DNA of 64,000 nucleotides from the sequence record PZ452583.1. One strand, written 5' to 3'. The position numbers and the translations under genes are program-made. Positions within the stretch are counted from its first letter, which is position 1, and each line of letters begins with the position of its first letter. Below, piece after piece: positions 39,966 to 40,467 of the stretch. Below the pieces are notes generated by a model. That model was given only the letters and a program-made list of their open reading frames with translations. It searched no databases and had not been told where the DNA came from. Source of the stretch: a phage.

Positions 39966-40021
39966 GGTAATAGTATCACTACCTCATCAGTGTGTAAACA
40001 ACTTTGTGAAATTATTTTAAA
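39966..40021. repeat. Promoter-plus-stem-loop direct repeat, copy B, upstream flank of the IPI-like gene
   Basis: See copy A; contains early promoter 39970..39999 inside GATGAGGTA/TACCTCATC inverted repeat. Confidence 0.7.
39970..39999 (-). promoter_or_regulatory. T4-type early promoter (GTTTAC, 18 bp, TACTAT)
   Basis: Read on minus strand; -10 sits in the loop of a 9-bp inverted repeat. Confidence 0.6.
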
Positions 40022-40467
40022 TCGTCTGCCCAATCAAGCTTAAGAGGTTCTTTGTATTCACGATCTAATACGACCGGAATTTGTACATCACCGCTAAATG
40101 ATAAGGGCCCAACATTATAAGACAATGTTATATGCGGTGTGTAATCGTCAAAATCATGTGTAGCACCTAGCGCCCGCGCATACATGTGTCGACAGCGCAG
40201 ATATTCAGAATCTAGTATAAGTACAAGAGTAGATCCATCTTGTGTTTTCCATACTTCTAAATGTCCAGAAGAAGCTACTTCAAAACTTCCGCTTGATGGA
40301 ACATACGGAACATTTACTCTTGAATAACATATAGTCGAATGAATTTTTTCTCTAGGAACTGGATTAGGAACGCGTAAAGAGCGCTGAAGTTCTTCCAGCG
40401 CATCAAGTGTTAATTCTGAAAACTTAGCTGCTACATAAAGACCCGTTGAAAAGTCTTTAAATTCCAT
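40012..40467 (-). CDS. 57B: 2H-phosphoesterase-family protein, gene 57B / Acb1-like (anti-CBASS cyclic-nucleotide phosphodiesterase)
   Basis: 151 aa; two H-x-T/S motifs (HSTI, HITL); immediately downstream of 57A as in T4. Confidence 0.8.

Follow-up and report, generated by a model that had tools for sequence, protein, structure and literature searches.

The closest described systems are the two anti-CBASS genes of phage T4. The cGAMP-degrading activity of T4-infected cells was purified and assigned to the product of gene 57B, i.e., Acb1 (Hobbs et al. 2022, PMC9117128). The same work presents the structure of Acb1 from phage FBB1 in its apo form (7T26) and with 3'3'-cGAMP (7T27). It assigns catalysis to the HxT/HxT tetrad H44/T46/H113/T115, base stacking to Y12, W74, F107 and W147 and adenine specificity to E141, while residues 145-152 form a C-terminal lid. 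H44A/H113A Acb1 is inactive, and T4 without acb1 is sensitised to CBASS (PMC9117128). HIDEN-SEQ transposon sequencing found T4 57B/acb1 dispensable on K-12 and conditionally important on a CBASS host (bioRxiv 10.1101/2025.11.20.689424).

The second gene, vs.4, encodes the sponge protein Acb2. T4 Vs.4 is a hexamer with three 3'3'-cGAMP molecules (Kd about 30 nM), whose bases are stacked by Y8 and F82 and which receive polar contacts from H11, K23 and R79; function is lost when S74, T12, L29, A66, A73 or A77 is mutated and partially lost for F33 (PMC10097602). Acb2 of Pseudomonas phage PaMx33 (Huiting et al. 2023; PMC10312549) belongs to the same Pfam family, Acb2_Tad1_hairpin, and follows the same hexameric dinucleotide-sponge mechanism, while being only about 24% identical to T4 Acb2. 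In the PaMx33 protein, cA3 and cAAG are bound in an additional pocket with R67 and T74 (Cao et al., PMC10312549). T4 Acb2, on the other hand, retains only the T74 equivalent of this pocket and binds no cyclic trinucleotides, which is credited to Y37, A57, L60, D61 and T64 together with a narrower pocket; as Cao et al. point out, trinucleotides are handled in T4 by Acb1 (PMC10312549). Beside its role against CBASS, T4 Acb2 is required for triggering the Panoptes (OptSE) defence and suffices to do so; this defence senses the depletion of the decoy 2',3'-c-di-AMP (PMC12657218). T4 escapers of Panoptes map to acb2/vs.4 and carry loss-of-function mutations, F82C among them, and activation needs both F82 and Y8 of Acb2 (PMC12657218). 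The equations of T4 57B with Acb1 and of vs.4 with Acb2, which the first-pass annotation of the locus studied here had made, thus agree with the literature (PMC10097602, PMC12657218, PMC9117128).

Here, we compare these systems with a stretch of 64,000 nucleotides of phage DNA (sequence record PZ452583.1), in the following called the window. Given the comparison, we consider it very likely that the window belongs to a T4-like phage with orthologues of both T4 anti-CBASS genes, and that Acb1 and Acb2 would jointly counter CBASS. Megablast searches of two regions and a 25-kb stretch among deposited phage genomes gave hundreds of matches of 95-99% identity to Tequatrovirus, i.e., T-even phages of Escherichia, Shigella and Yersinia, and no identical record. 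The top match for positions 20000..44900 is phage AndreasVesalius (97.2% identity over 94% of the query), while the best match depends on the region: PP01 around 57B (98.2%) and Jbel around vs.4 (99.8%). Since the best matches differ by region and no record is identical, the window represents a mosaic Tequatrovirus, a T4-like phage of E. coli and Shigella, and not T4 itself. Its minus strand carries genes in T4 order from position 1 to about 43400, with the counter-defence genes scattered across the hyperplastic early region as is usual for T-even phages. The features discussed are collected in Table 1.

Table 1. Features of the window, ordered by position; strand as reported.
Feature	Coordinates	Strand	Support or remark
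tk.4-like macro-domain protein	25506..25985	-	Pfam Macro, E=6e-8; phrog_335
regB	26869..27330		Pfam REGB_T4, E=6e-69
vs.3	27390..27668		neighbour of vs.4
vs.4 = acb2	27668..27934	-	88-aa predicted cyclic-dinucleotide sponge; Pfam, PHROG and T4 alignment
73-aa gene in the vs.5 slot	27927..28148	-	phrog_1986, function unknown
Shine-Dalgarno-like GAGGA	27942..27946	-	upstream of the acb2 ATG at 27934
vs.6	28148..28510		glycyl-radical domain
Ip4-like internal virion protein	29519..29992	-	Pfam DUF7412, E=6e-96; phrog_3155, E=6e-102; Ip4 in phage AR1
denV	30002..30418	-	next gene is lysozyme e
lysozyme e	30478..30972	-	directly after denV
tRNA cluster	36090..37036	-	10 genes
210-aa ORF	37043..37675	-	abuts the tRNA cluster; HNH endonuclease match below threshold
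Ip5-like internal head protein	39681..39938	-	phrog_3499, E=4e-50; annotated ip5 in phage PP01
57B = acb1	40012..40467	-	intact 151-aa ORF, 2H phosphoesterase; Pfam and T4 alignment
57A, tail-fibre chaperone	40467..40709	-	Pfam GP57, E=5e-51

Gene 57B of the window had been read as an Acb1-type 2H phosphoesterase, and the comparisons bear this out. Its product has a single Pfam match, PF23474 'Anti-CBASS protein Acb1' (202.4 bits vs. a cut-off of 27, E=3.3e-60), which spans the whole profile (positions 1-144 of 144), and it is 99% identical to T4 57B (NP_049750.1; 150/151 aligned residues). The sole substitution is conservative, i.e., I84 of the window stands for V85 of T4 (V85I in T4 numbering). 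Among PDB sequences, the top match is Acb1 of Erwinia phage FBB1 (PDB 7T26/7T27, E=5.4e-62), with which it shares 68% identity over 141 residues in an end-to-end alignment (chain 7T26_A); 9Q2G is a second, weaker Acb1 entry. Given this identity to a crystallised chain, the 57B product is predicted to adopt the compact 2H phosphoesterase fold.

The gene lies directly downstream of 57A, with the dNMP kinase and gene 3 next in order, which is the slot of T4 57B (downstream of 57A, gene 1 and gene 3). The TAA stop codon of 57A overlaps the acb1 ATG (junction TAATG), such that translation of the two genes is likely to be coupled. T4 57B is annotated one methionine longer because the T4 57A gene stops with TGA, which gives ATG-ATG; with the TAA stop of the window only the second ATG is present and 57B is therefore one N-terminal methionine shorter. 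That is, window numbering of 57B equals T4 numbering minus 1.

The functional residues of Acb1 are preserved throughout. The product shows the two H-x-T/S motifs noticed in the first reading and no further ones, HST at 43-45 and HIT at 112-114, i.e., H43-S-T45 and H112-I-T114 correspond to H44, T46, H113 and T115 of T4. This HxT/HxT tetrad is invariant in the alignment of the window protein with Acb1 of T4 and FBB1, in which the other mutagenesis-validated residues are kept as well. Y12, W74, F107, W147 and E141 (T4 numbering) are all present in the window, and the C-terminal lid (residues 145-152) is identical to that of T4. FBB1 Acb1, which shares the tetrad and serves as structural template for the mechanism, differs from both in having F at T4 position 74, Y at 107 and a one-residue insertion after 79; there the window protein follows T4.

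The candidate Acb2 had been proposed from gene order, since its ORF appeared to occupy the T4 vs.4 slot. Both the position and the similarity to Acb2 are confirmed. The local order is regB, vs.3, vs.4, a 73-aa gene and vs.6, i.e., the ORF sits downstream of regB and between vs.3 and vs.6 as in T4. Its product matches PF24729 Acb2_Tad1_hairpin over the full profile (positions 1-58 of 58; 71.3 bits vs. a cut-off of 27, E=7.6e-20) and phrog_717 (E=1.8e-32), the PHROG family that defines Vs.4 homologues in Jenson et al. 2023 (PMC10097602). With such margins over the cut-offs, neither this Pfam match nor that of 57B is a product of chance. The only match among PDB sequences is 7UQ2, 'Vs.4' of T4 (E=8.5e-55). 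The window protein has the same length of 88 aa as T4 Vs.4 and is identical to it at 86/88 positions (98%), the changes being C50D and F52L.

Upstream of acb2 the two phages differ. In T4, 36 nt separate vs.4 from the 58-aa vs.5, while the window has a 73-aa gene that resembles T4 Vs.5 over the first 18 residues only and whose end, including its TGA stop, overlaps the beginning of acb2 by 8 nt. The overlap suggests coupled translation of this gene and acb2.

The acb2 frame is open further upstream, which leaves three possible starts. The sequence preceding the ATG at 27934 is GGTGAGGAAGTCAAAT-ATG and places the GAGGA motif 8 nt before the start codon. In-frame alternatives are an ATG at 27964 (98 aa), used for vs.4 in the annotation of phage AR1, and a TTG at 27970 (100 aa), to which the program-made ORF list extends the frame. 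We set both aside since a Shine-Dalgarno motif is found only at ATG 27934 and is absent upstream of the two others; in addition, ATG 27934 is the start in the T4 annotation and in the crystallised protein. The 88-aa product is thus the best-supported reading of the start region. If the 98-aa form were made, it would carry a 10-residue N-terminal extension beside the ligand-contacting Y8 and H11. Scans for regulatory signals around acb1 and acb2 gave background levels: sigma-70 promoter-like sites, a class outside of which T4 middle and late promoters fall, number 13 and 12 compared to 12.7 and 12.1 in shuffled sequence, and intrinsic-terminator candidates are no richer than in shuffles.

With regard to ligand binding, the window Acb2 equals T4 Vs.4 at each position of interest. 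Y8, H11, T12, K23, L29, F33, A66, A73, S74, A77, R79 and F82 are all unchanged, which covers the cyclic-dinucleotide pocket (stacking by Y8/F82; H11, K23, R79 and S74) as well as the hexamer interface (L29, F33, A66, A73 and A77) and the T12 helix cap. Equally unchanged are Y37, A57, L60, D61 and T64, to which the blocking of cA3 in T4 has been attributed, and a cyclic-trinucleotide pocket of the PaMx33 type is not found in the window protein. Since the blocking residues are kept, the protein is expected to be a T4-type member of the family with a dinucleotide-only spectrum.

Many database entries would suggest another function for 57B, namely an RNA ligase or a LigT-like 2'-5' RNA ligase that acts in RNA repair and not against CBASS. 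The gene is called 'RNA ligase' in the RefSeq records of T4, PP01, RB32, RB14, T6 and others, phrog_755 bears the same description, and Acb1 and LigT enzymes do share the 2H phosphoesterase fold (PMC9117128). We regard such a role as very unlikely. A Pfam scan at E<=0.1 reports no LigT or 2'-5' RNA ligase family for the 57B product but Acb1 alone, and the name itself is an automatic one taken from the fold superfamily. Furthermore, biochemistry identified the 99%-identical T4 protein as what degrades cyclic oligonucleotides in infected cells, and this protein counters CBASS in vivo (PMC9117128); for purified T4 Acb1, cleavage of cGAMP/cAAA without RNA ligation activity has already been shown. 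Given the missing LigT-family match and this direct biochemistry on the orthologue, we dropped the ligase identity, and 'RNA ligase' is a propagated misannotation of Acb1. The 57B product may still have a side activity on RNA 2',3'-cyclic phosphates. In many records, vs.4 still appears as 'hypothetical protein' and 57B either under this name or as 'RNA ligase', while some recent GenBank records already use 'anti-CBASS protein Acb1' and 'anti-CBASS protein 2' for the two genes.

Both proteins fall short of 100% identity to T4, and the exact Acb2 variant (D50/L52) is a minority form that only 8 phage records match at >=99% identity. One could thus ask whether either gene, or both, is in decay or has shifted in function, e.g., through C50D/F52L in Acb2 or V85I in Acb1, such that the phage, unlike T4, would be unprotected. 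This is extremely improbable. The window itself presents gene identity, synteny, conservation of all mutagenesis-validated residues in both proteins and a mostly synonymous divergence. Neither reading frame is interrupted, and both start contexts are good. In 57B, 13 nucleotide differences to T4 change 12 codons, 11 of them synonymously and one non-synonymously; in vs.4, the same number of nucleotide differences gives 10 synonymous and 2 non-synonymous codon changes. Such an overwhelmingly synonymous pattern indicates purifying selection on both genes. Concerning the substitutions themselves, position 85 of Acb1 does not belong to the residues described as functional and is occupied by E in the active FBB1 enzyme, and positions 50 and 52 lie outside the binding and interface residues reported for T4 Vs.4 (PMC10097602). 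A milder variant, in which D50/L52 of Acb2 or V85I of Acb1 alters the ligand spectrum or affinity, e.g., such that the Panoptes decoy 2',3'-c-di-AMP is bound less tightly and cGAMP as before, also finds very little credence with us. If true, Acb2 D50/L52 would be a naturally occurring allele that escapes sensing by decoy while keeping its anti-CBASS function.

We return to the proposed pair of anti-CBASS proteins, for which catalysis, binding, oligomeric state and in vivo effect are transferred from the T4, FBB1 and PaMx33 proteins. In this model, Acb1 would act as a metal-independent 2H phosphoesterase on CBASS cyclic di- and trinucleotides with at least one adenosine, its presumed ligands being 3'3'-cGAMP, cUA, cAAA and cAAG. 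The ring would be strained over the HxT/HxT tetrad and cut 3' of adenosine via a cyclic-phosphate intermediate, and the resulting linear products should be unable to activate CBASS effectors. Acb2 would form a hexamer with three pockets, each located between two protomers and taking up one cyclic dinucleotide with an affinity of about 30 nM. Stacked by Y8/F82 and held by H11, K23 and R79, the signal would be kept from the effector; like T4 Acb2, the protein should bind cyclic dinucleotides but not cA3. Acting together, Acb1 and Acb2 would allow phage replication in CBASS hosts, and a phage with this pair of genes should withstand most types of CBASS whose signals are di- or trinucleotides that contain adenosine. 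The same Acb2 would also expose the phage to Panoptes (OptSE), the sensor of decoy dinucleotide loss. Since Y8 and F82 are intact, behaviour like that of T4 is expected, i.e., a carrier of acb2 should be sensitive to Panoptes hosts, which detect Acb2.

Homologues of both proteins are widespread. Using tblastn, we find Acb1 in 1,471 and Acb2 in 1,232 phage records, mostly from T4-like phages of enterobacteria. The two genes of the window are therewith already known, i.e., orthologues of genes characterised in T4. They warrant annotation as acb1 and acb2 and have little importance beyond this correct naming.

The first-pass annotation had also pointed to a macro-domain protein and to genes resembling those of internal head proteins, and concluded that the window holds several likely counter-defence functions. 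The genes are present at the positions given in Table 1, and the conclusion is reasonable. The macro-domain protein is only 57% identical to T4 Tk.4, which has been reported as AdfM, an anti-DarTG2 factor and ADP-ribosylglycohydrolase candidate (preprint, bioRxiv 10.1101/2025.11.20.689424). For the Ip4-like and Ip5-like genes, on the other hand, no counter-defence role is shown in the literature examined. The tk.4-like gene is diverged although its flanking genes are >=95% nucleotide-identical to other T-evens, and this divergent allele could reflect arms-race diversification.

The Ip5-like gene fills the slot of T4 ipI, and no IPI orthologue is seen at this locus. Its product is like T4 IPI only in the N-terminal ~10 residues (MKTxKEF...), a stretch that is probably the capsid-targeting leader. 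The Ip4-like gene sits between vs.8 and denV. As denV directly adjoins e in the window, ipII and ipIII, which are located between these two genes in T4, are absent.

The tRNA cluster comprises genes for Arg, His, Asn, Tyr, Met(CAT), Thr, Ser, Pro, Gly and Leu. T4 has eight annotated tRNAs (Arg, Ile, Thr, Ser, Pro, Gly, Leu and Gln), i.e., His, Asn and Tyr are extra in the window and Gln is missing, while the CAT-anticodon tRNA may be the counterpart of T4 tRNA-Ile. At the Rfam gathering threshold, 9/10 of these genes are listed, the exception being the Tyr gene (36439..36525), and the Rfam scan of 35300..37100 finds nothing but tRNAs. Beyond the 210-aa ORF next to the cluster, three further ORFs (37751..38939) have no Pfam match. 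The 210-aa ORF itself shows an HNH match of E=0.005 (17.3 bits vs. a cut-off of 21.4). In related phages, an HNH/homing endonuclease is annotated somewhere in the matched 25-kb stretch, an annotation not tied to this ORF. The ORF is possibly a mobile homing-endonuclease insertion.
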